Shown here: positions 1,063 through 22,588 of the stretch, piece by piece
Layout: every line of letters starts with the position of its first letter
How positions within the stretch are numbered: position 1 is the stretch's first letter
Origin: Patescibacteria group bacterium
GTDB lineage: Bacteria; Patescibacteriota; Patescibacteriia; PEXW01
Direction: 5' to 3'
DNA: 64,000 nt
Assembly: GCA_041665345.1 (NCBI GenBank)
Contig: JBAYJA010000001.1
Span: forward strand, 137,206 to 201,205
Notes under the pieces: generated by a model
Told to the model about the DNA's origin: nothing
What the model saw: the letters and a program-made list of their open reading frames with translations, nothing else
The model's database searches: none
Position numbers and translations under genes: made by a program

Positions 1063-1137
1063 TCCCAGGTAGCTCAGTGGTAGAGCGATCGGCTGTTAAC
1101 CGATTGGTCGTCGGTTCGAATCCGACCCTGGGAGCCA
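1063..1137 (+). tRNA. tRNA-Asn (anticodon GTT)
   Basis: Cloverleaf folded by hand: acceptor tcccagg/cctggga, D-arm agctcagtggtagagc, anticodon stem atcgg/ccgat with loop ctGTTaa, T-arm gtcgg-ttcgaat-ccgac, discriminator g, then CCA encoded. Confidence 0.9.
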
Positions 1138-4840: not shown

Positions 4841-5902
4841 GTGAGTATCACGATGAAAGACCATTTGCAGGGAAGCTTGCTGGGGGTTCGCATTGGCGAC
4901 GCACTGGGTATGCCGGTGGAAACCATGTCACCGGCAGAAATTTTAGCGGCTACGGATGGTAAAGGTGTAACGGGATTTTTAGATGCCATTCAGACAAAGT
5001 ATCCCGATCAAGCTATGCTCAAAAAGGGTGATCCAACCGATGACTGGCAGTTTAATCGGATTGTCGCTAAGTCGCTGATTGCTTGTAGGGGTTACAACCA
5101 AGCAGATATGGCGCGTCGGCACGTGGCTGAAAAAGACGTGAATATGATCGGCTGGGGGAAAACCACACGGTCGGCCACCATGGAATTGGCAACCTATTTT
5201 GCCAGCGGAGGCCAGTATGGTCGAGATCCGAACAATTTGCCCGAAGCTAAACCCGATTTTGGTGGCGGGAACGGCGTGGGTATGAAAGTATTTTCACTTC
5301 CCTCGGCAATCCTCGCCGCGGAATATGGTGCCCAGTACCGTTACCCAGAGTACACGTTGTTCCGTTGGGTCGAGCAGCTGACCATGTTAACGCATAGTCA
5401 TAGTGACGCATTTTTTACCGCGTACGCATTGGCGGTTGCGTTTGATGCTTGTGTTCGTGATGCAGTTTATACGTCATCGGATGCGCAACGGCTGCTCCAA
5501 AAAATCGATTTCGAACTTGCTAAAGTTGAAAATGCATCGCGCTATCGAGACGTAAGTGCAACACGCAAACAGATTGGCCGTCTGATGTATTGCATTGGTA
5601 ACCCCGGTAAAGTCACTGAAAATTTCCCTCCATATGGGTTAGCGATTCAGTCTGTACCCTTTGCTTTAGGCATTTTTCTCACCTATCCTGGGGATGCGCG
5701 GAAAGCATTGTTGACCTGTGTAAATGCTGGGTACGATTGCGACACCACGGCAGCCATGTGCGGCAGCCTCCTTGGCGCGAATGGGGGAGTGGAGGCATTC
5801 CCGGCAGAGTGGCGGAACTTCCGACCCGACTTCCAGGAACCGCTGGAGTTGGGCGAAAGATTGTACCAAGCTTTTGCTCGGACGTCCCAACAAACCTCGT
5901 AA
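4841..5902 (+). CDS. ADP-ribosylglycohydrolase family protein (DraG/ARH-like)
   Basis: G(VRI)GDALGMPVE near the N-terminus and CDTTAAMCGSLLGANGG near the C-terminus are the two hallmark Mg-binding motifs. GTG start is 5 nt after an AGGAG SD. Confidence 0.85.
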   Translation: MSITMKDHLQGSLLGVRIGDALGMPVETMSPAEILAATDGKGVTGFLDAIQTKYPDQAMLKKGDPTDDWQFNRIVAKSLIACRGYNQADMARRHVAEKDVNMIGWGKTTRSATMELATYFASGGQYGRDPNNLPEAKPDFGGGNGVGMKVFSLPSAILAAEYGAQYRYPEYTLFRWVEQLTMLTHSHSDAFFTAYALAVAFDACVRDAVYTSSDAQRLLQKIDFELAKVENASRYRDVSATRKQIGRLMYCIGNPGKVTENFPPYGLAIQSVPFALGIFLTYPGDARKALLTCVNAGYDCDTTAAMCGSLLGANGGVEAFPAEWRNFRPDFQEPLELGERLYQAFARTSQQTS

Positions 5903-7569: not shown

Positions 7570-7706
7570 TTACCGAAGAATTCGGTGCGTTACTAGTACC
7601 GCTCCTCAAACCCACACCCTCCATCCATACTCGCTTCCAGCCCTGAGTTTATCGAAGGGCCGCCACGCCCAAACCTTTACCTCTCCAACCCTGTGGATAA
7701 CTTTGG

Positions 7707-7735
7707 GCTTGACGGCTTTTGTGAGCGGGTTTACT
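7707..7735 (+). promoter_or_regulatory. promoter gggcTTGACG-17-TACTAT upstream of the NrtR gene
   Basis: The ORF track proposes a TTG start at 7703 that falls inside this promoter-like box. I interpret the box as a promoter. Confidence 0.45.
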
Positions 7736-7759
7736 ATGTGTATATCTTACACTAAGTAT

Positions 7760-8434
7760 ATGGCCAAGGTTGCTCGGAAGTACAAATTTGCAGTCATTGC
7801 CTCGGATGTCGTCATGCTGACCGTCCGCGATGGAAAGCTGGAAGTGCTTTGCATTCAGATGCAGAAAGCGCCGTTTATTGGGAAATGGGCCGTGCCGGGC
7901 GGGTTAGTGCAGCCAACGGAATCTGTGGACGAAGCCGCACACCGGATTTTGGCGGAAAAAGCCGGAATCCATGGGGTATACCTGGAGCAGCTGTACACCT
8001 TTGGCAAAGTGCGCCGGGATCCTTTTGGCCGCGTGGTTTCTGTGGCGTACTTCGCGCTGGTGCCCAGTGACGCACTCCGTCTGAAGACCACCAAGGAGTA
8101 CAAGGATGTGCAGTGGTTTCCCGTGAAGAAACTGCCTGGCCTGGCTTACGATCACGCAGACATTGTAGCCACGGCTGTGCAGCGCCTGCAGGCCAAGCTG
8201 GGATACACCAACATTGTGTACAGTCTGCTGCCAAAAACCTTTACCCTTTCGGAACTGCAGGGTATGTACGAAACGATTTTGGGAAAAACACTGGACAAGC
8301 GAAATTTTCGGAAAAAAGTCATTGGTTTAAAGCTGGTGAAGCCGGCAGGGGAGCAGCGGAAAGGCCAGGCTAGCCGGCCAGCGGAGCTGTACCGTTTTGC
8401 CGCCACTGAACTGAAGAAAGTGGAGATTCTCTAG
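7760..8434 (+). CDS. nrtR: NrtR-family regulator (Nudix domain fused to a C-terminal winged helix)
   Basis: Nudix signature GKWAVPGGLVQPTESVDEAAHRILAEKAGI. The C-terminal TLSELQGMYETILGKTLDKRNFRKKV is typical of the NrtR DNA-binding domain. Start set at ATG 7760 (MAKVARKYKFAVIASD). Confidence 0.75.
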   Translation: MAKVARKYKFAVIASDVVMLTVRDGKLEVLCIQMQKAPFIGKWAVPGGLVQPTESVDEAAHRILAEKAGIHGVYLEQLYTFGKVRRDPFGRVVSVAYFALVPSDALRLKTTKEYKDVQWFPVKKLPGLAYDHADIVATAVQRLQAKLGYTNIVYSLLPKTFTLSELQGMYETILGKTLDKRNFRKKVIGLKLVKPAGEQRKGQASRPAELYRFAATELKKVEIL

Positions 8435-8706
8435 CAAAATTTTTTACCTTCATATAAGTGTAAATAATACACTAACTATATGAGCCTTCTCACCCAATTC
8501 TTTGATGTCAACGTTATTTTACAGACTTCGGGTCAATCATGAGGAGATCTTCCCTGAAGGTGCTTTCTTCGTAGGCCGCACTAAGGAGCGGAGGAAGCAG
8601 TTTGAAGGAAGTTCTGCTCAAAACCAGCAGATTAGCTTCCAAAATTGTAAAGCACTTTGACAATTCGAAACCACCATAGAGTATCAAGAATATGTTTTTT
8701 GTGGGC

Positions 8707-8735: not shown

Positions 8736-8838
8736 GCTTTTTCTTAGAACTGAAGTACTGGAAGAGCTGGGGGCACTTTGAAAACCTAGAAATGAAACAA
8801 TTATTAATGAGATGAATGTTTTTTTGGGAAAGGAGAGA

Positions 8839-9669
8839 ATGATGATTGTGGAAGGCTTGTCAGGTCGCTACACACTAGGCACGCAAGTAGCAGAAACTGA
8901 GAAGTACCGGCTCTACCTTTGTAGAGAAGAAAGCACAGGCCAAGAGTGCTTGCTGCAGATAGCCACAGACAATCAGCATGATGGCACACTATGCCGTTCT
9001 GCTGTTCGGCTAGAAGTACTCAAACGTGCAGCCGATGCACTTGAAGCCGAGTATGAAAAGGTTCGTGAGAACCCTGAGATGCGGCTGAATTACGCCATTG
9101 GTTTCCCTGAGTTGATTGACAGTTTTCCTTGCATTCCGCAAGGTTCACGTCAGATCAATATCCTTGCATTTAGAAATGTTGAGGATGTGAGACACATGGT
9201 GCCGCTGTGTAATATTACTGTTCGGGATCACCTCCGGGTTGATTTTCGAACCAGTGCATGGATCATGGGGAAATTATTAAAGCTCCTGGTCTTTGCGCAC
9301 AGTCAGGGCATTGCGGTTGGACGGCTGGATAGCGCGAACATTTTGATTGAGCCAAAGCAGCACTACGTGTTGTTCTTTGACTGGTCAGAAGCATTTGTCT
9401 ATCCCGAAACTGTTCCGACGGAAATTGCCCGCCAGGAAATTGCCCAGGCCGCCAACGCGGTGATTACTGTTGTTGGAGGAAATCTGGAAACAAGAACTTT
9501 CCCGGACGACGGCGATACTGCGCAAGATCGCTACACGGATTTTTTGCTGCAGCTGGCTGACGGACGTCAGCGGGATGCACAGCAGGCGCACACGGAATTC
9601 TACAAGCTCGTTGATGAGCTCTGGAAACGTGAGTATTACGAATTCACCACGCTACCCGTACACACGTAA
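8839..9669 (+). CDS. protein-kinase-like fold protein (divergent, possibly a pseudokinase)
   Basis: AHSQGIAVGRLDSANILIEPKQHYVLFFDWSEAF aligns with the kinase catalytic-loop/DFG region (HxxGIxHRDLKPxNILI...DFG). The N-terminal GRYTLGTQVAETEKYRLYL resembles a Gly-rich loop. The canonical VAIK Lys and HRD Asp are not conserved. Start at ATG 8839 follows an AAAGGAGAG SD. Confidence 0.55.
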   Translation: MMIVEGLSGRYTLGTQVAETEKYRLYLCREESTGQECLLQIATDNQHDGTLCRSAVRLEVLKRAADALEAEYEKVRENPEMRLNYAIGFPELIDSFPCIPQGSRQINILAFRNVEDVRHMVPLCNITVRDHLRVDFRTSAWIMGKLLKLLVFAHSQGIAVGRLDSANILIEPKQHYVLFFDWSEAFVYPETVPTEIARQEIAQAANAVITVVGGNLETRTFPDDGDTAQDRYTDFLLQLADGRQRDAQQAHTEFYKLVDELWKREYYEFTTLPVHT

Positions 9670-9690
9670 ACACAGGAAGGAGTTTGATTC

Positions 9691-10809
9691 ATGGGAAAAG
9701 AAACTTTCTCACGAACCACGTACAGCAAATCGTACGCGAAATTCGCGTCAAAAGATGGTCCGGCAACGTCAAAGGCTGAGCAAACAGCCCACAAAACTGG
9801 TAAGCTGAATCCGCTTGTTGATCCGCAGGGATTTGGCGTGATTCGGCGTTCACTGCTTCGTCTGGAGCAGCTCCCAAATAAACTTTGGGAAGTGACCGTC
9901 GGAAGTCCACTCCCTATCGAAACCCGAGTCGACACGACCGGCAGCATGGGGCATAACGTTGATATTGCTTTACGGGTTCTTCCGAATGCATTTGAGCAGA
10001 TCAGCGAGGTAACCCCGGGCTACGATCAGCAGGTTGCCACCGGTATTTTTGGTGACGTGCAGGACCGGTTTGTCCTGTGCCGTCCGCAGTTTGAAATGGT
10101 TGCGGAGAAAATCGTTGAGCAGCTAACCTTAATGGTTCCTGAGCGAGCCGGTGGTGATGCTGACGAAGATCCGCACTACGGCCTATTTGGAGCCGCTTAC
10201 CTGGTTGCCGCGTACATTAATCGGATCGGTCTGAAAAGGTACGATTTCACTGCTTCTGATGCGTCAGCGCGTGATCGACTTGATGAAAGTCAACTTATCC
10301 GAATATTCGGACCCGACGTTTTCGCCAAGGTCGCCGAAAATGGGCATCAAATGCGCGCCGATGATCTCCCCACAACAGCTGATGTTGTGCAAGATCTCCT
10401 CAAACGCGCACATGCCTTTTTCCTGCAGGTTGGCGACAATTCGGAGACCACCAGATTCTGGACAAGAATCTACGGTCGCGAACGCGTGGTCATTCTGCCA
10501 AGCACCGAGCTAATGCCTCAGGTGCAGGCAACGATCATTGGACTGACCGAAGGAACACTCGATCTGAAAGATGTGCCGGCATTCCTGAAGAAGCACAATG
10601 TGCAATTGGGGGATGCTGAGAAAATCGCCCGTTCGGTTGCCAATATTCCAATTGGCGCACAAGCCGCGTTGCCGAATTTTTCCAAGCGTCCCAAGAAGGG
10701 TGACCTCTTCCGTGAGAAGACCGACCTTTGGCCGGTTGATCCACAGGAGCTTGGAAAAGCTAAGCCCCATAAGGCAAAGCCAGGCGACAAAAAGACTGAA
10801 TGGCTGTAA
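9691..10809 (+). CDS. von Willebrand factor A (vWA) domain protein
   Basis: RVDTTGSMG MIDAS (DxSxS-like) motif after a beta strand. A later GGD segment is present. AGGAAGGAG SD 7 nt upstream. Confidence 0.6.
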   Translation: MGKETFSRTTYSKSYAKFASKDGPATSKAEQTAHKTGKLNPLVDPQGFGVIRRSLLRLEQLPNKLWEVTVGSPLPIETRVDTTGSMGHNVDIALRVLPNAFEQISEVTPGYDQQVATGIFGDVQDRFVLCRPQFEMVAEKIVEQLTLMVPERAGGDADEDPHYGLFGAAYLVAAYINRIGLKRYDFTASDASARDRLDESQLIRIFGPDVFAKVAENGHQMRADDLPTTADVVQDLLKRAHAFFLQVGDNSETTRFWTRIYGRERVVILPSTELMPQVQATIIGLTEGTLDLKDVPAFLKKHNVQLGDAEKIARSVANIPIGAQAALPNFSKRPKKGDLFREKTDLWPVDPQELGKAKPHKAKPGDKKTEWL

Positions 10810-10836
10810 ACCCCCTCTCACGACAAACCGAATGAG

Positions 10837-12228
10837 GTGATGATGACGAACAAAGTCTACGTTGTCACCGATCTCGGTCCAGGAGACGGTGGCAAAGGTG
10901 GTGTGGTGCACAAAATCTCCACGATGCAGTGCGCGCATACCATTATTAAAGTCGGCGGTGCGCAGGGAAGCCACGGTGTCTGCACCTCGCAGGGTGAAAG
11001 CTTTGCTTTCAGCCAGTGGGGTTGCGGGACGCTGGAAGGGGTGAAAACACACATCTCCTCAGAGATGGTTGTCATGCCCGAAGGTTTACTGAATGAAGCT
11101 GATACCCTGCGCTACAACTGTGGAGTGCACAATGCCTTTGATCTCCTCACGGTTGATGAAAGTGCGCTGTGCGCCACACCCTACCATGGTATTGCCTCAC
11201 GCCTGAAAGAGATGGCGTTGGGCGACCACCCGCGTGGAACCATTGGTACCGGCGTTGGCGAAGCGTTCCGCATAGCGGAACGCATGCCAGAGCTCGCACT
11301 ATACGTTCGTGATCTTTCACGAGCGCATTTGCGACAAAAATTAGCTGACTGCAGAGAGCAAATCCGTTCCGATCTTGCAGGAGTGATGCGCGGGGAATTT
11401 TCCGGTGCTGACCAGGAAGCTGCGCAGCAGGAAATGCATCTTCTGTATGATGATGATTTCCTGACGTATGTCTTCCAACGCTTCCAAACAGTTGGGAAAC
11501 GGGCAACAATTGTTGATCCTGGCTATCTTGGGAGGGAGATTCTCTCGCAAGACGGAGTAGCAATCGTGGAGAAATCCCACGGGGTGCTCACTGATCGCTA
11601 TCATGGTTTTCATCCCCATACCAGCGCTATTCGGACATTGCCATGCTTTGCCGAAGCAATGTTGAGGCGCGCTGGCTATGGCGGAAGTATTATCCACCTT
11701 GGTGTTACTCGGGCATACCAGATTCGCCATGGAGCCGGACCCATGCCAACTGCTGATCCAGCAATGGCAGAACACTTGCTTCCGGGTAGTCACAAGGAGG
11801 AGAATCGTTACCAAGGCAAGATTCGCGTTGGTCCGCTGGATCTTGTCCTGCTTCGCTACGCCCTAGCAGCCTGTGGAGGTCCAACCGCTTTCGATGGCCT
11901 TGCCGTCACGTGGTTTGATCAAATACAGGCAAATGGTGCTTGGCACCTGTGCGATGGGTACGAGGGCAGTATTGGGCAAGACTTTTTCACACCCCTGGGT
12001 GATATAAAAGTCCGGCACGGCAATGATGCGAACCAGCTTGCGTACCAAGAAGCTTTGGGGCAGCACCTCTTGTGCTGCACGCCCAAGCTGCAAACTGTCC
12101 ACTTTTCACCAACCGAAACGCGAGACAATTTGTTCGCGCTTTGTGCTGGTGTGTTACAAGAAAAATTAGGCATTACAACCAGAATGATCTCGTTTGGGCC
12201 AACTGAACGAGACAAAACGTGCAAGTGA
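10837..12228 (+). CDS. adenylosuccinate-synthetase (PurA) family paralogue, divergent
   Basis: P-loop VVTDLGPGDGGKGGVV (PurA GDEGKGK). GGAQGSHGV (PurA GGHNAGHT). HPRGTIGTGVGEAF (PurA TTGRGIGPAY). TRAYQIRHGAGPMPT (PurA GSGPFPTE). Overlaps the next gene, so translational coupling is likely. Confidence 0.8.
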   Translation: MMMTNKVYVVTDLGPGDGGKGGVVHKISTMQCAHTIIKVGGAQGSHGVCTSQGESFAFSQWGCGTLEGVKTHISSEMVVMPEGLLNEADTLRYNCGVHNAFDLLTVDESALCATPYHGIASRLKEMALGDHPRGTIGTGVGEAFRIAERMPELALYVRDLSRAHLRQKLADCREQIRSDLAGVMRGEFSGADQEAAQQEMHLLYDDDFLTYVFQRFQTVGKRATIVDPGYLGREILSQDGVAIVEKSHGVLTDRYHGFHPHTSAIRTLPCFAEAMLRRAGYGGSIIHLGVTRAYQIRHGAGPMPTADPAMAEHLLPGSHKEENRYQGKIRVGPLDLVLLRYALAACGGPTAFDGLAVTWFDQIQANGAWHLCDGYEGSIGQDFFTPLGDIKVRHGNDANQLAYQEALGQHLLCCTPKLQTVHFSPTETRDNLFALCAGVLQEKLGITTRMISFGPTERDKTCK

Positions 12229-12248
12229 AACTTGCAGGAGGACAAACA

Positions 12249-13247
12249 ATGTCAGGAGAAACCCTTGATCCGGTAACTGCTAAACTTCGCGAACTTGGCG
12301 TTGACGATGCAACGATCGGAAAAATTAAAGATGATCTCGGCGCGACGAGTGTTGAAGATCTTGCCGGTCTGACCGAAGCCGATCTCATCGGTACGGGCAT
12401 GAAGGTTTTGCAGGCAAGAAAATTACTTGCCGCGCTTGCCCCTACCGCCTCGCCTACTGCTGATCCTACCGCTGAATTAGCCGAAGGTGAGCAGCCTTCC
12501 AAAGCGCAGGTGAGTGGCTTTGCTGGCATGCTTGGCGCTGATCCTACCGCTCTGCTCCTGCTCATGAGCGGTAAGGGTGGTGATATGGATCTTACATCCA
12601 TGATATCTATTGCTAGCCTGGTCAACGGGTATAATCCCAAACGCCGAGACTTGTACTTGACGGTTATGGGTCAGGTTGAAGGTCGGCTTGGATTACCCAT
12701 TGTTGTTATCGACGGCGATGGCAGCATCAACCGCGAACTTACCATCGAGTACATTGAAGGACTCGAGGAAGGACGTGATTCTGCCGAAAACAACATCTAT
12801 TTCGATTCAACCGGCTCGCCGCATGAAGTCATTCGCGTTGGTGTTGATGCACAGAGCATCTACGACGCTGATCCGTTGAATCCAAGTCGGGCACTGCAGA
12901 AGAGTGGTATGGGTATTGGTCGCGTGAATTGGACCAACGTACCGCTGGAAGTTCGTCAGGTCGCATACTATGCGGTCACCAAAACGGGTGAAATCGACCC
13001 GAATAATGATGCGCATCAGTCGTGGCTCCGTGACAAAATGAAACCAGGCTCAACTCGTCTGGTCTTTCATGGGCAGGCTCCACGTGCAATCAGCGAATTC
13101 AACGAAGCGGCTCGTACTGGTTCGTTACCAACACTTCGGGTCATGCTTTCGCGTGGTCCGCGCCGTCCGGAGTTTATGCCGCGTCGCCGTCGATCATCGC
13201 CAGCCGACCTTACCGGCATTGGCGGACGTCGAGACGATGACATCTAG
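12249..13247 (+). CDS. hypothetical protein with N-terminal tandem HeH/SAP-like helix-hairpin motifs and an Arg-rich C-terminus
   Basis: LRELGVDDATIGKIKDDLGATSVEDLAGLTEADLIG resembles Rho-N/SAP/LEM HeH repeats. An Ala/Pro linker and an unknown C-terminal domain follow. ATG 12249 sits 6 nt after a GCAGGAGGA SD. The in-frame GTG 12219 overlaps the PurA-like stop. Confidence 0.5.
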   Translation: MSGETLDPVTAKLRELGVDDATIGKIKDDLGATSVEDLAGLTEADLIGTGMKVLQARKLLAALAPTASPTADPTAELAEGEQPSKAQVSGFAGMLGADPTALLLLMSGKGGDMDLTSMISIASLVNGYNPKRRDLYLTVMGQVEGRLGLPIVVIDGDGSINRELTIEYIEGLEEGRDSAENNIYFDSTGSPHEVIRVGVDAQSIYDADPLNPSRALQKSGMGIGRVNWTNVPLEVRQVAYYAVTKTGEIDPNNDAHQSWLRDKMKPGSTRLVFHGQAPRAISEFNEAARTGSLPTLRVMLSRGPRRPEFMPRRRRSSPADLTGIGGRRDDDI

Positions 13248-13280
13248 TCGTTAATCGTTCCTTTTTCCACTTTGGTGGGG

Positions 13281-13309
13281 TGGCCAGAAAGCATTACGCT
13301 TTCTGGCCA
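13281..13309. terminator. bidirectional terminator hairpin tggccagaaagc-attac-gctttctggcca
   Basis: Perfect 12-bp stem flanked by T/A runs, between convergent genes. Confidence 0.8.
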
Positions 13310-13315
13310 TTTATT

Positions 13316-15286
13316 TTACTTGATTTTTGGCAAGAATACCCGGTTCGCGTAGAGTTGGGTTGCTAGCTGGCGGTAGCCCGAATCCCAGAAGGTGCTCTGC
13401 CCGTCAATGCGATCAGCGTGTGGTGTTTGGATGCCGCCGTGTGCAGGAAAGAATCGTTCATAGCCCTTGTGCATCAAGCGGTACTGGAGGGTGTCGCGTT
13501 CCAGTTCTTCAATGTACAGTCCCCGCGCTTCTCGCCCATGCAGAGTTTTCTGCGTGTCATACATATACGGTGTTAGCAGTTTTTCGCGCAGTTCGCGAAT
13601 CTCGCTGGCGTTTCCTTCCCAGGCCGCGCCAAAGAGAATATGTGTCCAAGAGCTTTCGCCCAGGGATACTTCAGGACTGTTAAAGTCCTGTACACCTAGA
13701 CCCCCTTTCGTTTCCTCAAGCCAGAATGCAACAACATCACCCTGCAGGTGATTTTGGGTAAAAGTTTCTTTCAGCTGCTTCTGCAGTTTTTCGTGCTCAC
13801 TTGGGGCTACCCCTGGCCGCACGAAGACGCCGGTATCCACATCCGCACCGTTAGCGCCGTAACCCTTCAGCCGTGAACCGAAAAGCAATACCACCGGGTA
13901 GAGTTTTTGCGACAGTTCTGGGTTTGCTTCAATGGCCGCCACAATGTTCTGGGTGTCCTGCACCTCTGCTTTCAGCTCTGAGAGGTTCTTAGAAAACGGT
14001 CCGGCGAGCGCAGGGACGGAAATATCCAGCGCTTCAAGCTCCGACGTTGTAATAAGTTGTAGGCCATGGAGACGGAAGAAAGTTTTTTCTAGCTCCTCAT
14101 GTACTGCTGGCGCAGCTGTGTGCCAGAGAGCGGTGAGCGTATCCTGGTAGCGCTCAAAGAGCACCTGCGCTGCTTGGGGGTTGGTTCGTGTGATTGCTTC
14201 AATAGCCTTGCGGATGCCGTTGATGGCTGCTTGCTGGCTTTCTACGCTGGCCTTCGGGTCAAAATACTCCTCAAGGGTGTGCTGATTGAGTGCTCCATTG
14301 GCGATTGCAGTTTGTAGGGCATCCCCAAGCGTTTCCAGAATTTTGCGTTTTTTTTCGCGTGTTAGCCACGCTTCCCGTTTCTTGGTCATACCCGTGTACG
14401 TCTCAGCGTCAATTTGCTTAAATGCATTTTGGATTGTTTCTTGCAATGCGGAAGGGGATAGGGTTGATGCTGTTGTAGTTTCTTGCTTCTCTGAATGTTC
14501 AGAGGGTATAGAAATTTCTAGCGTCACGTTTCTGACAAAAGCATTGGAAGATGCATGCATTGCTTTCAGCTCTGCCTCATGAAGAAGGCCCAGATCTGCC
14601 AAAACCGGTAGCGTGTCTGCAATGCTCTGTTGCAGCGTTTCATCGTCACTAGATTCCAGAAGCTCCACCACCTCCTGGGTTGTCATGAGATTCCGCTCAA
14701 CGAGTTTGGGAATCAGGTGTGCAGCTTTCACAACCCGTGGTAGATCTCCCGCTCGTGATTCCACATCCAGTACGTCGCCGTCAACAAAGTTTGCCCGGAC
14801 ATCGTGCACCGACAAAAGTTTCTCCCACGCCCTACTGTACGCCTGGCGGAATTCCTCCGTAGCCTGTTGCAGCGCTGGAGAGTCTGGTTCCCAGGTCTTT
14901 GGCGGTAAAAATTCAAAGGGGAGGTAGAGTGCTATCCGTTGGTAATCCTCATCTTCAAGCAGGTATTGCAGTGAAGTGTAGAGTTCCGCCACTTCTGCCT
15001 CAGGAATGTTGCCGTTGGCCACTGCTTCTTCCAATGGAAGATCTGGCCGAGGCAGACGAGAGATGACTTCTTGCAACCTTTGATTCAGTTGCCGGCGCGA
15101 TTCAACCTGATTCTGGAATGCCTCATTTTTGGTGACATGGTCAGGCCAGACCTCTGCCGCATGAGCAAGATCCAGGAAGGATTCCACTGCCGGAGGGGCA
15201 ATAGGGTATCCTTCAGCTCGTTCATGTTCTCGTTTGTAGCCTTCATGGTTCATGTACGTAGCATAAAGTGAATACTCAAAACACAC
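13316..15286 (-). CDS. large protein with a C-terminal Pol-beta-type (minimal) nucleotidyltransferase domain
   Basis: LLFGSRLKGYGANGADVDTGVFV matches the GS-x9-13-DxD NTase motif at about residues 455-480 of 656. The 450-aa N-terminal region is helical and acidic, with no motif I recognise. Confidence 0.6.
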   Translation of the reverse strand: MCFEYSLYATYMNHEGYKREHERAEGYPIAPPAVESFLDLAHAAEVWPDHVTKNEAFQNQVESRRQLNQRLQEVISRLPRPDLPLEEAVANGNIPEAEVAELYTSLQYLLEDEDYQRIALYLPFEFLPPKTWEPDSPALQQATEEFRQAYSRAWEKLLSVHDVRANFVDGDVLDVESRAGDLPRVVKAAHLIPKLVERNLMTTQEVVELLESSDDETLQQSIADTLPVLADLGLLHEAELKAMHASSNAFVRNVTLEISIPSEHSEKQETTTASTLSPSALQETIQNAFKQIDAETYTGMTKKREAWLTREKKRKILETLGDALQTAIANGALNQHTLEEYFDPKASVESQQAAINGIRKAIEAITRTNPQAAQVLFERYQDTLTALWHTAAPAVHEELEKTFFRLHGLQLITTSELEALDISVPALAGPFSKNLSELKAEVQDTQNIVAAIEANPELSQKLYPVVLLFGSRLKGYGANGADVDTGVFVRPGVAPSEHEKLQKQLKETFTQNHLQGDVVAFWLEETKGGLGVQDFNSPEVSLGESSWTHILFGAAWEGNASEIRELREKLLTPYMYDTQKTLHGREARGLYIEELERDTLQYRLMHKGYERFFPAHGGIQTPHADRIDGQSTFWDSGYRQLATQLYANRVFLPKIK

Positions 15287-15407
15287 AACATATTTTATTA
15301 GCCTAGCACTTGCCTACGTAACACCCGTCTTCATCCCTTGAAAAAATGTTTATTTCACCTCTTGACAAGAGTAACAAAAAATGAGAAGGTTGCGGGTCTA
15401 AAAACCA

Positions 15408-15448
15408 GAGATTTGGGAGTGCAAAAGTGCATTTTCACTCCCAAATCT
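15408..15448. promoter_or_regulatory. 41-bp inverted repeat (agatttgggagtg-N14-cactcccaaatct) in the divergent promoter region between the NTase gene and pncA; candidate operator
   Basis: Perfect 13-bp arms. It lies between divergent starts, so it is not a terminator. Confidence 0.45.
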
Positions 15449-15532: not shown

Positions 15533-16081
15533 ATGGGAAACCGTGCGCACATCACCATCGATGTGCAGAATGACTTTTGCCCTGAGGGAAGACTTGCGGT
15601 TACTGCGGGTGATGAAGTTGTACCCGTCATTAACCAGCGGGTGAAGAATCCTGCTTATAAACGCAAGTACAATTCCCGTGATTGGCATCCGCCCGGTTCG
15701 GAGCATTTTAAGAAATGGCCGACGCACTGTGTGGAAAAAACTTTGGGTGCAGCCTTTCATCCGGATTTGGATCTCACAGACGCAGTGATTATTACCAAAG
15801 GTCAAGACCCGGCGCTCGATGGTTACAGCGCCTTTGAGGGTACGACGTCCTGGGGAGCAATGCTGGAAGATGATCTTCGCGCACATGGAATCACCGACAT
15901 TGACATCGAAGGTTTGGCTACTGAATATTGCGTGAAGAAATCTGCTATTGATGGAGCCAAACGTGGTTTCAACGTTACGGTGTACCTCGATGGCTGCCGG
16001 GCAGTGAATATCAAGCCGGGCGACGAAGAAGCAGCGATTGTCGAAATGCGTGCCGCCGGCGTCAACGTTGTGGCCGCCTAA
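15533..16081 (+). CDS. pncA: nicotinamidase/pyrazinamidase (isochorismatase family)
   Basis: ITIDVQNDFC...RDWHPPGSEHF...TEYCVKKSAIDG fits the Asp/Lys/Cys triad pattern. AGGAGG SD. Confidence 0.75.
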   Translation: MGNRAHITIDVQNDFCPEGRLAVTAGDEVVPVINQRVKNPAYKRKYNSRDWHPPGSEHFKKWPTHCVEKTLGAAFHPDLDLTDAVIITKGQDPALDGYSAFEGTTSWGAMLEDDLRAHGITDIDIEGLATEYCVKKSAIDGAKRGFNVTVYLDGCRAVNIKPGDEEAAIVEMRAAGVNVVAA

Positions 16082-16161: not shown

Positions 16162-16232
16162 GACAGTCACCTGACTGTCCCATTCCTCTGGTCATAACAT
16201 AAGGTTGTGGCCTTGCACTTTCAGAAATACAC
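16162..16232 (+). promoter_or_regulatory. regulatory module copy 1: 8-2-8 palindrome gacagtca-cc-tgactgtc, 6 nt, then a 47-nt conserved element ctctggtcataacataaggttgtggccttgcac...
   Basis: Recurs at 16638-16708 with the same spacing, directly upstream of the next gene. The element can form a 9-bp RNA hairpin ggucauaac/guuguggcc using G-U pairs. Confidence 0.55.
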
Positions 16233-16255: not shown

Positions 16256-16570
16256 ATGGTAAACGTACAAGCCTTTGAGTTGCGGAAGTTGATTCCCGAA
16301 CTTGAGGCACAACTCAAGCAAGCGAGACAAGCGCTTGAAGCGATTGAAGCACGGTGCTCGCATAGCTGGGGCCCAGTACAGTACGACCCCATCGAGCATG
16401 CTGCATATCACATTCCCGGCGACCCGCCGGAGTTTAGCGGCGCAGATCATCGATTTCCAATGGACGTGCCCGCCCGAACCGAGAAACGTTGGCGACGGGA
16501 TTGCATCCATTGCGGAAAACCAGAATACACAAACCATACAAAACCTGCTGGGGAAGAGCCAGTGTTCTAA
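16256..16570 (+). CDS. hypothetical small protein (Cys/His-rich)
   Basis: 104 aa. CSHSW...CIHCGKPEY. SD gaggtg upstream. Confidence 0.5.
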   Translation: MVNVQAFELRKLIPELEAQLKQARQALEAIEARCSHSWGPVQYDPIEHAAYHIPGDPPEFSGADHRFPMDVPARTEKRWRRDCIHCGKPEYTNHTKPAGEEPVF

Positions 16571-16637: not shown

Positions 16638-16708
16638 GATGATTATGTGATCATCTTCTATCTCTGGTCATAACATTAGGTTGTGGCCTTGCACCTTAAG
16701 AAAATGAA
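16638..16708 (+). promoter_or_regulatory. regulatory module copy 2: palindrome gatgatta-tg-tgatcatc, 6 nt, then the conserved element ctctggtcataacattaggttgtggccttgcacc...
   Basis: About 90% identical to copy 1 over 47 nt. A partial third copy (tgcaccttgaaaacatg) lies at 18256-18285 upstream of the Nudix/pncB genes. Confidence 0.55.
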
Positions 16709-16731: not shown

Positions 16732-18132
16732 GTGAAAGTCATCATGTATGGCTTAAGCGCTAATCCGCCTGGGATACACCATCGTTTATTGGTGCAGGAA
16801 ATGGCGAAGTATGCAGACCTGGTCATTGTGGTGCCGTGCGGTTTACGGCCGGACAAGTTGACCACGAATGATATCCCGCCGTTGTACCGTGCAGCAATGA
16901 CCGACATGACCTTTCAGGACATTCCAAATGTATGCGTGGATCTGTCTGACTTAGAACGATCAGTATTCACGCGAAGTTGGGAGTTGTTGCAAAGGTATGA
17001 GCGAGAATATCCTGGAGCGGAACTTTGCTTGGCAGTTGGTGGCGATCTTATTGCCAACGGTCGCTATGGTGAGTCAGCCATTCACCGCAAGTGGGAGCAG
17101 GGGAAAACACTGTGGGAAAATGCAAACTTCATTGTTTGCAATCGCCTGCACACTCCCTTTGATCCTGTGGATCTACCCCCACACTGCCAGTTTGTGCATG
17201 TAGACCTTGTCGGTTCCAGCACAGACATTCGGGATCGCGTGTTCGGACACAAACCAATTACCGGTTTGGTGATGCCGAGCGTGGAGACCTACATTCATCG
17301 GTACAATCTGTACCGGGGCATGATGGCGGCCACAACCGCGAAGCATGCCAGCTTAGATAATCCTCGCCTGCTCATACTGGCAGATGCTGAGACGCCACGA
17401 GCAATGGCAATCGCTTCGCAGTTCGCGCGGTTTGAGGATGCTGAAAATCCAAACGGCATTTTGGTCTGTGGCGGTGATGGCATGATGCTGCAAGCAATTC
17501 GGCAGGAGTGGCGCCGACGTTTGCCCTTCATCGGCATGAATGCTGGCCATTGGGGGTTCCTCATGAATAGCTTCGAAGAAATCACCGCAATGGATCACGC
17601 CTTTGATGACCTCTCTTTTGTCCAGTCGCCCATGCTGTACGTGGAGTCAGTGCGGCCAGATGGAACCACGGCAAATGCCTTGGCGTTCAACGACTGCTGG
17701 ACGCATTCGCAGAACAATGGGCAAGCAGCGAAATCTGAGGTTCGCGTGAACGGCAGAGTCTGCCTCAAGTCCGTGGTGTCAGATGGCATGCTGGTGAGTA
17801 CGGCCGCGGGATCAACCTCGTATGCGCGGGCAATGGGCGCTATGCCACTTCCGGTGGGCTCGAGTCAGCTTATCCTCGTGGGCAGCAATGTGTTTTCCCC
17901 CTTTGGGTGGCGGCCAGCGTACCTGCCAATTACCGATCGGATTTGCATCCGAACTTTGGAACCGGAGAAGCGTCCGGTAGATGCATTTGTTGATGGTATT
18001 TCCTTTGGGCAAACCATGCAGCTCGATGCCCGAACCAGCAATATTGCTTCCGTGGAAATTGGATTCTTCGGCGCACACGATTTGCAGGAGAAGATCCGCG
18101 CAATTCAGTTCGTTGAGCAGTATCTTCAATAG
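16732..18132 (+). CDS. bifunctional fusion: nicotinate/nicotinamide-mononucleotide adenylyltransferase (NadD-like) N-terminal, NAD kinase (NadK) C-terminal
   Basis: The N-terminus MYGLSANPPGIHHRLL matches the (H/T)xGH nucleotidyltransferase motif of NadD. The C-terminus has GGDGMML (NAD kinase GGDGT motif), NDxW and TAAGSTSYARAMGA (NadK GSTAYS motif). It is a single 466-aa ORF. Confidence 0.8.
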   Translation: MKVIMYGLSANPPGIHHRLLVQEMAKYADLVIVVPCGLRPDKLTTNDIPPLYRAAMTDMTFQDIPNVCVDLSDLERSVFTRSWELLQRYEREYPGAELCLAVGGDLIANGRYGESAIHRKWEQGKTLWENANFIVCNRLHTPFDPVDLPPHCQFVHVDLVGSSTDIRDRVFGHKPITGLVMPSVETYIHRYNLYRGMMAATTAKHASLDNPRLLILADAETPRAMAIASQFARFEDAENPNGILVCGGDGMMLQAIRQEWRRRLPFIGMNAGHWGFLMNSFEEITAMDHAFDDLSFVQSPMLYVESVRPDGTTANALAFNDCWTHSQNNGQAAKSEVRVNGRVCLKSVVSDGMLVSTAAGSTSYARAMGAMPLPVGSSQLILVGSNVFSPFGWRPAYLPITDRICIRTLEPEKRPVDAFVDGISFGQTMQLDARTSNIASVEIGFFGAHDLQEKIRAIQFVEQYLQ

Positions 18133-18302: not shown

Positions 18303-18917
18303 ATGGTACAGCCAAAAGTGCGACCGCAAGGCAGTTTCGCCTTGGAGACTGTTGATATCAATGGTCGAAATTGGTCGGTGCTACACGCTTCAGACTCAGC
18401 CGGTTTATTGGTCTTTCTGAAAGATCGTAATGCCATTGTGCTGGTCCGGCAGCAGCGTGCGCCCATGGTTTCTGCACACAATCCGGAAGGTTCGATTACG
18501 GAACTTCTCGCTGGTCGGTTCGACAAAGACGAGACGCCAATCCAGTTGCTGGTTCGCGAGGCTTCAGAGGAAGCTGGAATCGCCATTGATGCCAGTCAGA
18601 TCAAAGTACTCAACTTTGGTCACCCGCTTGCCCTCTCAGCCGGCATTATTGATGAACTATGCTGGATTGGTTACGTGGAAATTTCCGATGACCAAATTGA
18701 CCCCAGCGGTAAGCTTTACGGACTGCACGAGGAAGGAGAGTTCATTGACCGGATCATGATTCCGGTTGAGCAACTTGAATCCCTGGTTTGTGAAGATGCT
18801 CGTGTCTTCGGCATGATCCAGTGGTTCCTGCGTTGGCAAATGGAACACCGTCTGCAAGCATTAACAGACCAGCTGGAGAAATTCGAACGCGAGATGAACG
18901 AAACGAAAACGATTTGA
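18303..18917 (+). CDS. Nudix hydrolase, likely ADP-ribose pyrophosphatase
   Basis: Nudix box GRFDKDETPIQLLVREASEEAGI. Sits between nadD-nadK and pncB. Confidence 0.7.
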   Translation: MVQPKVRPQGSFALETVDINGRNWSVLHASDSAGLLVFLKDRNAIVLVRQQRAPMVSAHNPEGSITELLAGRFDKDETPIQLLVREASEEAGIAIDASQIKVLNFGHPLALSAGIIDELCWIGYVEISDDQIDPSGKLYGLHEEGEFIDRIMIPVEQLESLVCEDARVFGMIQWFLRWQMEHRLQALTDQLEKFEREMNETKTI

Positions 18918-18926
18918 AGGGAGTGA

Positions 18927-20195
18927 TTGAAGGTGCTTACAACACGCTTTATTCGAAAAGATGAGGCGATCATCCAGTCGTTGCTTGACGTGGACTTCTA
19001 TAAGTTCACGATGAGCCACTTCATTTGGAAGTACTACCGGGACGTCGAGGTAACCTTCGGGATGAAGAACCGTACGAGTCACGTTCGCCTCGCGGAAATT
19101 ATTCCAGAAGGAGCTTTACGTGAGCAGCTGAACTACGTCCGGGATTACCTCAGATTCAACTTGAGTGAAATTTTTTACATGCGAGGTATGGATATCTACG
19201 GGAAGAACATGTTTTCGGAGGATTACCTGGATTTCCTGAAGGCACTCGCCATGAGTGATTATCAGTTACGCGTGGTTGATGGTCAGTTTGATCTACGCTT
19301 CACTTGTCTTTGGCCGGCCGTTACTTTCTGGGAGACAATTTCGCTGGCGATTGCCAACGAGTTGTACTACCTAGAAATCCTGAAGGAAGAAACTCGGTTC
19401 GATCGACAGGCAATCTATGCCGAAGGTATCAAGCGACTCCACGAGAAAATAAAAAAACTCAAGGAGCACCCTGACCTAACATTCATCGAGTTTGGTACAC
19501 GCCGGAGATTTGGCCGAGTTTGGCAGCGCGATGTCGTCTGTGCGTTAGCCGAAGAATTACCACCGACGCAATTCCGTGGTACGTCAAACACAAAGTTGGC
19601 GTTTGACCTTGGCTTAGTTCCCATGGGTACCAACGCGCATGAACTGCAAATGGTAGTTGGCGCCCTCGCTAAGGACGATGCTGCACTTCTGGCTTCCACT
19701 GACAAAGTGCTTGATCAGTGGTGGGAGTTGTACGGTTACGGTCTCTCTATCGCGCTACCGGACACTTTTGGCTCCGATTTCTTCTTTCAAACATTTGGTG
19801 AAGAGCGAGCAAAGAAGTGGAAAGGTGTGCGGGAGGACTCCCGTGATCCGTTTGTGGGCGGCGAGCAAGTTATTCAGTACTACCAGAGTCTAGGTATTGA
19901 CCCCAAGACGAAGCTCTGGTTGCCGAGTGATGGTTTAGACATTCAGAAGATCATCGCGCTTCACAATCAATTTTGTAACCGCATCGGCCTGTCATTTGGC
20001 TGGGGCACAACCCTCACGAATGATCTCGGTTTACCCACGCTCTCTCTTGTCGCCAAGACAATTGAAGCGAATGGCCGACCGTGTGTGAAGCTTTCGGACA
20101 ATTTGGCCAAGGCCATGGGTCCGAAAGATGAAGTCGAACGGTATAAACGCGTATTCGGCTATACGAATACGCATACCGAAGAGTGCAAAGTCTGA
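18927..20195 (+). CDS. pncB: nicotinate phosphoribosyltransferase
   Basis: 422 aa with NAPRTase-family motifs (FGTRR...; LPDTFGSDFF; VREDSRDP). TTG start is 4 nt after an AAGGGAG SD. Confidence 0.85.
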   Translation: MKVLTTRFIRKDEAIIQSLLDVDFYKFTMSHFIWKYYRDVEVTFGMKNRTSHVRLAEIIPEGALREQLNYVRDYLRFNLSEIFYMRGMDIYGKNMFSEDYLDFLKALAMSDYQLRVVDGQFDLRFTCLWPAVTFWETISLAIANELYYLEILKEETRFDRQAIYAEGIKRLHEKIKKLKEHPDLTFIEFGTRRRFGRVWQRDVVCALAEELPPTQFRGTSNTKLAFDLGLVPMGTNAHELQMVVGALAKDDAALLASTDKVLDQWWELYGYGLSIALPDTFGSDFFFQTFGEERAKKWKGVREDSRDPFVGGEQVIQYYQSLGIDPKTKLWLPSDGLDIQKIIALHNQFCNRIGLSFGWGTTLTNDLGLPTLSLVAKTIEANGRPCVKLSDNLAKAMGPKDEVERYKRVFGYTNTHTEECKV

Positions 20196-20926: not shown

Positions 20927-22588
20927 GTGAAAATCGCTTTGCTCCAACTGAATTTTACCGTGGGTGATTTAGAAGGAAACACCACGAAGATTATTGCTGG
21001 CTATCAGCAGGCGAAAGCGCAAGGTGCGCGGTATGCAGTGAGTTCGGAGTTGGCTATCTTTGGCTACCCGCCTCAGGATTTGTTGGAATTTCCAGAATAC
21101 TTGGAACGTCAAGATGCGCAAATTGAACGCCTCCGTCAGGAAGTGAAGGGCGAAACGAGCCTCATTGTTGGCATTGCGGAGCGGAATACCACCGGGACAG
21201 GGAAACCCCTGTTTAACAGTGTGATACACATCTACGATCAACAGGTGCTGGTTATTGGTCGGAAGTGTTTACTGCCGACGTACGATGTATTTGATGAGCA
21301 GCGGTATTTCACGCCTGCCGAACTCCCGCGTCCGATCAGGCGGGATAGGACATCCATCGCCACATTAGTATGCGAAGACATTTGGTACGGTTCTGAATTT
21401 GTCAGCGGTCATCATCTGTACAAAGATGATCCAGTCGGTCACCTTGAGGGTCTGGGTGTGGACTTCCTTTTCGTTCTCAACGGTTCGCCGTACACCTGGC
21501 ACAAAGGTCGGGAGCGGTTTACCCTAGTGCAGAATATCGCACAGCGTTGCAAGTGTAACGTAGTGTACGTCAATCAAGTTGGCGGCAATGACGACATTCT
21601 TTTTGACGGCCGGAGTTTCGTTGTCAATCCCCAAGGGGAATGCATTGGCGCTGCGGAGCCGTTCAAGGAGCAGGTTGTTATAGTCGATATGGACAACCCT
21701 ACTCCGGTTGCGTATCCGTTCGATGATAACCTGCGTGATCTCTACGATGCTTTGGTTATGGCCACCCGTGATTACATTGCGAAAGTTGGTTGTCAGCAAG
21801 GTGTGGTCATTGGCCTTTCTGGCGGTATTGACTCTGCGTTAACCGCGGCAATCGCAGTTGATGCGCTGGGCCCCGACAAGGTTGTAGGCATAACCATGCC
21901 CTCAGTGCTCTCTTCGAGCGGGAGCGTCAGTGACTCTCTGGCTCTCGCCAAGAATTTGGGAATACAGTGTTTCACCGTTCCCATTGGTTGTACGGTTGAT
22001 AGCTACGGGAAAGCGCTGGAGCCGATCATTGGTTGGTACCCAGCAACTGCACGACCGGGTGATGTGACCGAGGAGAACATCCAGGCCAGGACGCGGGGGA
22101 ATATACTCATGGCGCTTTCAAACCGGGTGGGAAAAATCGTTTTGACCACCGGCAACAAATCGGAAGTGGCTGTGGGCTACTGCACGTTGTACGGCGATAT
22201 GGCAGGTGGGTATGCGGTCATTTCCGACATTCCCAAGACTTTGGTGTATGCACTCTCAAGGTACGTCAATCGGTTTGGAGAAATCATTCCCGAAAGTACC
22301 CTCACCAAGCCGCCATCGGCCGAACTTCGACCGGATCAGAAAGACACTGATTCATTGCCGGCGTATGAGGTGCTGGATCCGATTCTGAAAGCCTACAATG
22401 AAGATCGGATGACGGTAGGGCAGATTATCGAGCTTGGTTTGGCGGATGCAGCCACAGTGCATCGGGTCATTCGCATGGTCAACACGAATGAGTTCAAACG
22501 GCGGCAACTTGCACCGGGTCCGAAGGTAACCTCCAAAGCCTTTGGGTCTGGTCGGCGCATGCCCATTGCTGCCAAAATGATTAGCTAG
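20927..22588 (+). CDS. nadE: glutamine-dependent NAD+ synthetase
   Basis: N-terminal CN-hydrolase domain (MKIALLQLNFTVGD...). C-terminal PP-loop SGGIDSALTAAIA. 553 aa. Confidence 0.9.
   Translation: MKIALLQLNFTVGDLEGNTTKIIAGYQQAKAQGARYAVSSELAIFGYPPQDLLEFPEYLERQDAQIERLRQEVKGETSLIVGIAERNTTGTGKPLFNSVIHIYDQQVLVIGRKCLLPTYDVFDEQRYFTPAELPRPIRRDRTSIATLVCEDIWYGSEFVSGHHLYKDDPVGHLEGLGVDFLFVLNGSPYTWHKGRERFTLVQNIAQRCKCNVVYVNQVGGNDDILFDGRSFVVNPQGECIGAAEPFKEQVVIVDMDNPTPVAYPFDDNLRDLYDALVMATRDYIAKVGCQQGVVIGLSGGIDSALTAAIAVDALGPDKVVGITMPSVLSSSGSVSDSLALAKNLGIQCFTVPIGCTVDSYGKALEPIIGWYPATARPGDVTEENIQARTRGNILMALSNRVGKIVLTTGNKSEVAVGYCTLYGDMAGGYAVISDIPKTLVYALSRYVNRFGEIIPESTLTKPPSAELRPDQKDTDSLPAYEVLDPILKAYNEDRMTVGQIIELGLADAATVHRVIRMVNTNEFKRRQLAPGPKVTSKAFGSGRRMPIAAKMIS

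Follow-up and report, generated by a model that had tools for sequence, protein, structure and literature searches.

A Patescibacteria nucleotidyltransferase family encoded tail-to-tail with a conserved PurA-like operon, a predicted NrtR target

Introduction

What does a large protein that ends in a minimal nucleotidyltransferase (NTase) domain act on, when its gene converges on a four-gene operon? The question is raised by a 64,000-nt stretch of a Patescibacteria genome (GenBank assembly GCA_041665345.1, contig JBAYJA010000001.1, positions 137,206 to 201,205), here called the window, in which the protein, designated NT656, is encoded at 13316..15286. Patescibacteria account for much of bacterial diversity and depend on hosts for nucleotides and cofactors; to our knowledge, the function of most of their conserved lineage-specific genes is not known.

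Comparative analysis defines NT656 as the founding member of a Patescibacteria-restricted NTase family that is apparently catalytically competent and is encoded beside the same operon in almost every locus with enough flanking sequence. The operon encodes a PurA-like protein and a 372-aa protein as its constant components and is a predicted target of the NAD-metabolism regulator NrtR. We propose, tentatively, that NT656 is a dedicated NTase acting on this pair of proteins or on its product.

Results

NT656 converges on a conserved operon

We assembled 84 non-redundant loci (83 fetched, plus the window) and clustered all of their open reading frames (ORFs) without bias. NT656 lies tail-to-tail with the same operon in 73 of the 84 loci, or nearly all of those with sufficient flank; loci without the partner genes are mostly on contigs that end early. 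The gap between the converging genes has a median of 70 nt and is at most 150 nt in 61 of 71 loci. The same convergent genes in the same order were found in two individually inspected relatives and in a tblastn survey of 84 loci (4 duplicates). The proximity to the operon, noticed by a sequence-only reading of this DNA, is thus conserved. The adjacency to pncA remarked on in the same reading is not, as pncA is nearby in just 8 of the 84 loci.

In the window, the operon is on the plus strand and encodes a protein-kinase-like protein (285 aa, 8812..9669), a 372-aa protein (9691..10809), a PurA-like enzyme (463 aa, 10837..12228), and a 342-aa protein with an N-terminal SAM-like domain and a variable C-terminus (12219..13247). 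Among the 84 loci, NT656 was identified in 82, the PurA-like protein in 73, the 372-aa protein in 72, and the kinase-like protein in 57. The fourth gene is absent in some loci, takes a 398-aa form in 51, and takes the rarer 337-aa form, to which the window copy belongs, in 9. An apparent fusion of the kinase-like and 372-aa proteins in one locus (L036) was rejected because a stop codon is present.

Two architectures of the module can be distinguished. In type A, a pseudokinase and the SAM-like protein accompany the PurA-like and 372-aa proteins. Type B, present in 8 or 9 distant loci (L033, L041, L043, L052, L053, L062, L074, and L081), is without the kinase-like and SAM-like genes and has instead a 310-aa pyruvate-kinase-barrel protein, a classic AAA ATPase of ~650 aa, and a His-rich 235-aa protein. 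Because NT656 remains full length in type B modules, the PurA-like and 372-aa proteins are its constant partners.

The partner proteins depart from known enzymes

The PurA-like protein matches Pfam Adenylsucc_synt with 112 bits, while its NCBIfam purA scores of 69–81 bits are far below the cut-offs of 395–402. It was compared with E. coli PurA, using what we take to be the reference sequence and residue roles. The GDxGKG P-loop, the catalytic His, and the guanine-specifying D333 are kept; the ligands of the inosine monophosphate (IMP) phosphate (N38, T129, R143) and the TTGRxRR aspartate loop are replaced. Judged by equivalog score and by IMP- and aspartate-binding residues, the protein does not qualify as an adenylosuccinate synthetase.

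The 372-aa family has more than 1100 members, all unnamed. Its D81-x-T83-x-S85 motif, which resembles a metal-ion-dependent adhesion site (MIDAS), is invariant, and 3 of 32 members weakly match VWA_4. Profile searches against PDB returned no relative for this family or for the fourth gene. The kinase-like protein is related to phage 'Ser/Thr kinases'. In Patescibacteria, the family lacks the HRD Asp and does not conserve the VAIK Lys or the DFG Asp, and we therefore classify it as a pseudokinase.

NT656 defines a sharply bounded family

The 656-aa ORF reported previously was confirmed; it is on the minus strand and starts at a GTG codon. The deposited protein identical to NT656 is a 645-aa hypothetical protein from a Patescibacteria metagenome-assembled genome (MAG). 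Because of this shorter deposit, and because homologues do not align and the AlphaFold2 model is disordered before about residue 25, the true start is probably Met12 at 15253, giving a product of 645 aa. Full-length homologues of 27–59% identity occur in hundreds of genomes, so the ORF is real, far beyond chance.

A word-indexed search put the number of full-length relatives (570–690 aa) above 326; among the 120 listed, identity is 43–59% over 87–100% of the query. When 1.84 billion representatives were searched exhaustively with an HMMER profile, 565 proteins matched at E ≤ 1e-3 (468 at E ≤ 1e-30), and the 150 matches listed are all of family length or fragments of the family. In this search, no other architecture with the N-terminal domain came to light. 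The family is sharply bounded and nearly all of its members are from Patescibacteria; with 565 representatives and nothing outside the family matching, NT656 appears to have a dedicated function. The 80 loci from GTDB species representatives span Uhr-, Falkow-, Moran-, Pacei-, Woese-, Davies-, Kaiser-, Ryan-, Yanofsky-, and Nomurabacteria as well as Saccharimonadia, and a few MAGs with NT656 bear other automatic taxon labels. Longer homologues of 780–826 aa do not represent forms with an extra domain; they carry helical insertions in the linker of the N-terminal domain.

The sequence-only reading had set NT656 apart from cGAS/DncV-like NTases (CD-NTases) and from the GlnE and GlnD layouts. This holds, and CCA-adding enzymes can be added to the families excluded. 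Specifically, GlnE, GlnD, CCA-adding enzymes, and PcnB gave no match to NT656 in Pfam at E-values up to 0.1 or in NCBIfam at E-values up to 0.01, and the NTase domain of NT656 is C-terminal. The homology to a housekeeping NTase that would have spoken against the earlier, putative reading as a nucleotidylating regulator was not found in either database. PADLOC gave no match to CD-NTases or to cyclic-oligonucleotide-based signalling systems (CBASS), and no effector genes were found in the neighbourhoods. Neither PHROGs nor PADLOC returned anything for NT656, and NCBIfam returned one spurious sub-threshold match, to the exonuclease VII small subunit (17.7 bits versus 107). A HEPN partner or fused HEPN domain had also been suggested as worth looking for. 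Pfam detects no HEPN domain in NT656 or its neighbours, and no small HEPN gene is present in the 84 loci. The sequence R184-x5-H190 resembles the Rx4-6H motif of HEPN domains; R184 is present in just 44 of 65 sequences and there is no HEPN Pfam signal, so a fused HEPN domain was rejected. A literature search found no description of the NT656 family, its module, or the phage trio described below.

The C-terminal domain is a Pol-β/MNT-type NTase with an intact motif

The α/β core of the NTase domain spans residues ~461–560 (13607..13906, minus strand) and was assigned by sub-threshold Pfam matches, PDB profile matches, and Foldseek, which together bear out the earlier proposal of a C-terminal minimal (MNT-like) Pol-β NTase. 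PF01909 matches NT656 with 14.5 bits, below the cut-off of 21, and some homologues have a precomputed match to PF18765 or PF01909. Searching PDB with a sequence profile gave HI0073, GLD-2, and LinB at E 0.025–0.17. The best Foldseek matches of the C-terminal domain in PDB are the minimal NTases 2rff (probability 0.99), MntA antitoxins, and HI0073, followed by poly(A) polymerases, ANT(3'')(9), and CdnC (probability 0.41–0.72 for CdnC). Consistent with these matches, the AlphaFold2 model shows a helix-strand-helix-strand core.

The active-site motif of the Pol-β superfamily is hG[GS]-x9-13-Dh[DE]h. NT656 has this motif in the form G470-S471-x10-D482-V-D484 (13835..13879, minus strand). The motif, its position near residue 470, and the DVD had been recognised before; the spacer, given then as x11, is x10. 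Among 65 aligned sequences with identities as low as 27%, all have G470 and S471, 64 have D482, and 63 have D484. The conserved motif indicates that NT656 is apparently an active, catalytically competent Pol-β/MNT-type NTase.

Conservation extends well beyond the motif. Specifically, R164, H190, D635, and R639 are also invariant, K187, E596, R603, H606, and Y609 are shared by 64 of the 65 sequences, and R304 and W307 by 63. Two of the conserved acidic residues, E596 (64/65) and D635 (65/65), are located in the C-terminal tail.

The N-terminal domain is acidic, all-helical, and unique to the family

AlphaFold2 modelled full-length NT656 with a predicted local distance difference test (pLDDT) of 83 and a predicted template modelling (pTM) score of 0.84. 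The model consists of an all-helical domain (residues ~26–460, ~435 aa; 13907..15211, minus strand), the α/β NTase core, and a helical tail. The long acidic helical region noted earlier ahead of the motif is confirmed: residues 12–460 are helical in the model, with a pI of 4.8 and a net charge of −32. The domain has a conserved loop, DVRANFxDGD, and a variable linker at ~257–300. Loops 165–184, containing DVRANFxDGD, and 262–270 are of low confidence.

No relative of the N-terminal domain was found in Pfam, PDB, or BFVD by sequence or fold. Foldseek with the full-length model retrieved only noise from ARM/HEAT solenoids in PDB and nothing in BFVD, and member-wise Pfam scans of the domain gave scattered noise, with no transcription activator-like (TAL) and no HEPN match. 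The profile of the domain matches TAL effectors alone, through one stretch of ~52 aa. Residues 191–260 (14507–14716, minus strand) show a 34-aa periodicity that is in register with TAL repeats (LIPKLVERNLMTTQEVVELLESSDDETLQQSIADT, then LPVLADLGLL...). Homology of residues 164–260 to TAL effectors (E 2e-5) was rejected as an artefact: matches of ~2 bits each add up along a repetitive target. Residues 191–260 form ~1.5–2 repeat-like hairpins of ~2 bits each, which does not amount to a TAL-effector array. Because the signal is statistically weak per repeat, the periodicity is probably a convergent helical hairpin.

The C-terminal helical tail (13319..13606, minus strand) carries the conserved motifs ERDxLQYRLMHxGY (E596, R603, H606, Y609), FWDSGYR (D635, R639), and RVFLPK. 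When the C-terminal 229 aa were modelled alone, confidence was lost in the last 48 residues, and the tail is ordered only with the N-terminal domain present. These models suggest that the tail probably packs on the N-terminal domain.

The partner operon is a predicted NrtR target

In the window, the module (operon and NT656, 8812–15286) is embedded in a complete NAD-salvage cluster. An ADP-ribosylglycohydrolase (ARG) gene (4841–5902) and nrtR (7703..8434, plus strand; Nudix and NrtR winged-helix domains by Pfam and NCBIfam) are located upstream, and pncA (15533–16081), a nadD-nadK fusion (16732–18132, plus strand), a Nudix gene (18303–18917), pncB (18927–20195), and nadE (20927–22588) are located downstream. 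NrtR is an ADP-ribose-responsive regulator. Among the 84 loci, nrtR is within 10 kb of the module in 21, and at least one NAD-salvage gene is present in 24. A rough estimate from 20 kb of flank and a genome of ~1 Mb gives ~2% as the value expected by chance for each gene. The module does not replace NadE, since nadE is found in the window as well as in 8 loci.

The upstream regions yielded a 21-bp palindrome, TTAGTGT-N7-ACACTAA. With at most 2 mismatches, it occurs at 50 sites in 1.41 Mb, compared with 4–13 in shuffled sequences (~8 expected). The sites are concentrated upstream of the kinase-like gene, which is the first gene of the operon (15 sites in 12 of 56 loci, 0.12 expected from shuffles), nrtR (6 sites in 6 of 21 loci, 0.02 expected), pncA (9 sites in 5 of 8 loci, 0.03 expected), and nadE (4 sites in 3 of 6 loci, 0.02 expected). 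Published NrtR operators have 21-bp symmetry and a GT-N7-AC core, and the palindrome matches this motif class (Rodionov et al. 2008, PMC2330246). Because the boxes are located upstream of the operon and rarely upstream of NT656, the operon is a predicted NrtR target, and NT656, to judge from gene orientation and box positions, is transcribed separately, converging on the operon.

In the window, one NrtR-type box (TAAGTGTAAATAATACACTAA, 8455..8475) is located 347 nt upstream of the first gene of the operon, and a second box (7735..7755) is located just upstream of the likely nrtR ATG (7760). The two boxes flank nrtR, and the box at 7735–7755 falls inside the TTG-started ORF call, which suggests that nrtR really starts at the ATG at 7760 and controls its own expression. 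No NrtR-type box was found in the window upstream of pncA or other NAD genes. The tie to neighbouring NAD genes suggested before is thus upheld by the NrtR-type boxes and by the 24 loci with NAD-salvage genes, and not by pncA adjacency or by the palindrome next to pncA (see below).

Phages and a Saccharimonadaceae genome carry the partner genes without NT656

Cluster C mycobacteriophages (Bixzunavirus) encode, in order, a J-domain kinase, a 339-aa protein, an 88-aa protein, and a PurA-like protein (gp251–254). In Mycobacterium phage Caravan (OQ995436.1, 150077–153850), this block is a homologue of the operon in the window. The kinase of the phages carries the HPD motif within an N-terminal J-domain and matches Pkinase above threshold, and the PurA-like protein has the same non-canonical pocket as its counterpart in the window. 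The pair of 339-aa and PurA-like proteins is also found in IMG/VR phage contigs.

NT656 was found neither in GenBank phages nor by a pattern scan of IMG/VR. Two IMG/VR contigs retrieved through the 372-aa protein do encode an NT656 homologue; these contigs may be Patescibacteria rather than phage.

More than 2000 proteins are related to the 339-aa protein of the phages. In one Saccharimonadaceae contig (JBMDUW010000001.1, 7764–11504; locus L096), a phage-type trio without NT656 includes a 351-aa protein 70% identical to the mycobacteriophage protein. This trio is placed between pncA/pncB/His_Phos and nrtR/nadE/nadD, so the NAD association recurs independently, and NT656 is an accessory to the trio. 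Saccharibacteria are epibionts of Actinobacteria, and the 70% identity suggests that they have exchanged genes with actinobacteriophages.

DNA flanking NT656 and other features of the window

The 68-bp tail-to-tail gap between NT656 and the operon holds one terminator-like hairpin (13278..13312) with perfect 12-nt arms (13281–13292 and 13298–13309). This agrees with the shared terminator described in the sequence-only reading, and the hairpin is likely a bidirectional terminator.

The palindrome between NT656 and pncA, previously described as 41 bp with perfect arms, does exist; it is 40 bp long (15409..15448), with 17-nt arms that are 94% complementary and perfect only in the outer 13 nt of each. 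It was rejected as an NrtR box because the half-site spacing is wrong and it does not recur elsewhere. Among the inverted repeats listed for 21 NrtR-linked loci, no similar element was found, and the hairpin has no Rfam family match. It precedes the pncA start by 85 nt and follows a TTGACA hexamer (15362–15367) by ~45 nt; the hexamer was identified by eye, and the promoter scan did not call it. For pncA, the hairpin could serve as an operator or as a structure in the 5'-untranslated region.

A 33-nt element, CTCTGGTCATAACATWAGGTTGTGGCCTTGCAC, occurs twice on the plus strand (16186–16218 and 16662–16694) and nowhere else in the 64 kb. Its core is an imperfect palindrome, GGTCATAAC-N5-GTTGTGGCC, and the copies are ~40 bp upstream of orf104 and of nadD-nadK, respectively. 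Because it is distinct from the NrtR-type box, the element may be a second regulatory site for NAD genes; as a shared operator it was rejected, since it is found solely upstream of these two genes. The 104-aa ORF (16256–16570, plus strand), between pncA and nadD-nadK, contains Cys and His residues (CSHSW...CIHCGKPEY) and has no family match. The 466-aa nadD-nadK product combines a NadD-type NaMN/NMN adenylyltransferase (residues 1–200) with an NAD kinase (residues 223–461); tblastn found homologues of the fusion in just 2 surveyed loci. A tRNA gene (1063–1134, plus strand) is the sole Rfam match above the gathering threshold in the window.

Discussion

NT656 and its partners point to an undescribed NAD/ADP-ribose-linked system, because the convergence on the PurA-like operon is near-constant and the operon carries NrtR-type boxes. 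Our leading reading, which we consider plausible although still short of an even chance, is that NT656, as a dedicated NTase, has the PurA-like/372-aa pair or its product as its target; the chemistry is our proposal. NT656 would be the Patescibacteria-specific fourth core component of a conserved module. Its helical domain would dock on the PurA-like/372-aa pair, and its NTase domain would transfer a nucleotide, most likely AMP, onto the PurA-like or the 372-aa protein and so set its activity, by analogy with the control of glutamine synthetase by GlnE and the neutralisation of HepT by MntA. A protein target is favoured because many of the partners are non-catalytic interaction modules, because the N-terminal domain is acidic, and because NT656 is transcribed separately. 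The partner set is indeed rich in such modules (pseudokinase, SAM-like, vWA-like, AAA), and the acidic composition disfavours nucleic-acid binding.

Several results weigh against this reading. The trios of phages and of one Saccharimonadaceae NAD cluster are without NT656, so the NTase is dispensable for the core chemistry. An NrtR-type box precedes NT656 in just 3 of 79 loci, and in the window none was found upstream at up to 3 mismatches; in at least two of these three loci (L032 and L079), the box is in a region common with the adjacent pncA or nadE. As to the enzyme itself, the PF18765 match (residues 465–519, E 0.0017) scores 18.9 bits, below the cut-off of 26.9, and the Foldseek matches have E-values of just 0.02–0.2, with TM-scores of 0.24–0.56 depending on normalisation. 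In the sequence alone, the strand that usually bears the third catalytic carboxylate shows no evident candidate for it, and E524/E525 of FWLEE are unconserved. Finally, a small-molecule acceptor in an NAD/ADP-ribose-linked pathway is nearly as plausible as a protein.

Such an acceptor is the core of a metabolic explanation, in which NT656 would add a nucleotide to a small molecule or nucleotide that the PurA-like protein produces or consumes, in an NrtR-controlled NAD/ADP-ribose or purine pathway that helps nucleotide-auxotrophic Patescibacteria recycle or rebuild adenine- and NAD-type nucleotides. The module is in NAD-salvage clusters of the window, L032, L039, L051, and L095, as is its NTase-less form in L096, and NrtR-type boxes are common to the operon, pncA, and nadE. 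The PurA-like protein keeps its catalytic residues in a changed substrate pocket, type B adds a pyruvate-kinase-barrel protein, the NTase also resembles the antibiotic- and nucleotide-modifying ANT(3'')(9), LinB, and CdnC, and the many invariant Arg, Lys, and His residues would fit phosphate binding. However, the window already encodes the whole Preiss-Handler route (pncA, pncB, nadD, nadE, nadK) outside the module, half of the module's proteins serve for interaction and not for catalysis, the fourth gene varies among loci, the family is confined to a minority of Patescibacteria genomes, and no candidate reaction can be named. As a whole, we consider this explanation unlikely. A conflict system is, in turn, nearly as plausible as a protein target, though rather improbable when taken by itself. 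The module would then be an anti-phage or anti-ADP-ribosylation system switched on by ADP-ribose through NrtR, with NT656 as an MntA-like neutraliser or as an NTase producing a signal or effector, and phages would use the trio as a counter-measure or takeover tool. This would account for a distribution that is patchy yet phylogenetically wide, for flanks that differ among loci, for a variable or absent fourth gene and two module architectures, and for homologous trios or pairs in Cluster C mycobacteriophages and IMG/VR phage contigs. MntA antitoxins are among the nearest structural neighbours, ARG and His_Phos genes flank some loci, and the gene content recalls the predicted anti-ADP-ribosylation immunity built of ARG, phosphatase, Nudix transcription factor, and vWA protein (PMC9503650). 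Against it, no module protein has a PADLOC match, no toxic effector (nuclease, TIR, SIR2, pore) is recognisable, there is no HEPN partner, and identities of 45–70% across classes with a rigid gene order are unlike typical fast-evolving defence islands.

The remaining explanations concern the enzyme class. A poly(A)-polymerase- or terminal-uridylyltransferase-like enzyme, guided by helical repeats to tail RNA 3' ends, would fit the weak profile matches to GLD-2 and poly(A) polymerases and the helical, solenoid- or TAL-effector-like N-terminal domain; it is very improbable given the net charge of −32, the ~2 bits per repeat of the TAL-like signal, the lack of a PAP-central or RNA-binding domain or a Pfam PolyA_pol match, and a synteny conserved with enzymes, not RNA genes. 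Least credible of all is a diverged GlnE or GlnD, CCA-adding enzyme, or aminoglycoside or lincosamide NTase, for which a generic NTase fold and weak similarity to LinB and ANT(3'')(9) speak, and nothing more. Pfam and NCBIfam give no match to those families, the full-length profile retrieves only family-length proteins or fragments among its 150 listed matches, the NTase is C-terminal behind a unique 435-aa domain, and the synteny is with the PurA-like operon, not with glnA/glnB or tRNA genes.

Combining a dedicated NTase with the regulatory and phage data gives a broader proposal that we regard as doubtful for now. An ADP-ribose-responsive, NrtR-controlled Patescibacteria system would use an AMPylating NTase to gate a GTP-dependent PurA-like ligase that no longer makes adenylosuccinate, and the NTase-less trio, which Saccharimonadaceae and actinobacteriophages have in common with identities of up to 70%, would embody a new NAD/ADP-ribose-linked activity, employed by both sides in phage-host conflict or in nucleotide homeostasis. 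If the PurA-like protein does have a new substrate and is controlled by NT656, the module would be a new branch of NAD/ADP-ribose or purine homeostasis and could explain gene sharing between actinophages and Saccharibacteria. In any case, what was an isolated 'NTase-domain protein' is now part of a defined, testable module with four core genes, two architectures, and a predicted regulator (NrtR), inducer (ADP-ribose), and operators, and related genes are found in mycobacteriophages, which are well studied and genetically tractable.

The module as a whole has no described counterpart, while the NTase enzyme type itself is already known. The closest relatives of the NTase domain are the MNT-type NTases (HI0073, SSO 2rff, MntA), which share the Pol-β core and the hG[GS]-x9-13-DxD motif and are the best profile and fold matches. 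In the type VII toxin-antitoxin system MntA-HepT, MntA AMPylates its partner protein, so the MNT clade can modify proteins. However, MNTs are 100–150 aa long and paired with HEPN proteins, whereas NT656 is 645–656 aa long, with a unique 435-aa N-terminal domain and a conserved C-terminal tail, has neither a HEPN gene nor a conserved Rx4-6H, and is partnered by the PurA-like and MIDAS-like proteins. The likeness to GlnE, a large helical NTase that reversibly nucleotidylates a metabolic ligase, is a functional analogy alone; NT656 has no similarity to it in sequence or domain order and no GlnE/GlnD Pfam match. TAL effectors have tandem 33–35-aa repeats that are individually recognisable, in contrast to the ~1.5–2 weak repeat-like hairpins of NT656.

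At the level of the locus, the operon, nrtR, pncA, and nadE share the 21-bp palindrome with its GT-N7-AC core, as in the NrtR regulon (PMC2330246); unlike in that regulon, no module protein is a known NAD enzyme, and NT656 itself has a box in only 3 of 79 loci and none in the window. Predicted anti-ADP-ribosylation systems combine ARG with a phosphatase, a Nudix or WYL transcription factor, and a vWA protein or chaperone (PMC9503650). Module loci likewise have a Nudix-winged-helix regulator, a vWA-like protein, and occasional ARG or His_Phos neighbours; however, the published description is without a PurA-like protein, a kinase-like protein, or a large NTase, and ARG is present in only 4 of the 84 loci. 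The gp251–254 block of Cluster C mycobacteriophages is a further close counterpart. It is without an NT656 homologue, and its kinase (gp251), annotated as a Ser/Thr kinase, has a J-domain and an above-threshold Pkinase match where Patescibacteria have a pseudokinase. The phages do have a homologous trio of kinase-like, 372-aa-like, and PurA-like proteins, in the same order and with the same non-canonical PurA-like pocket.

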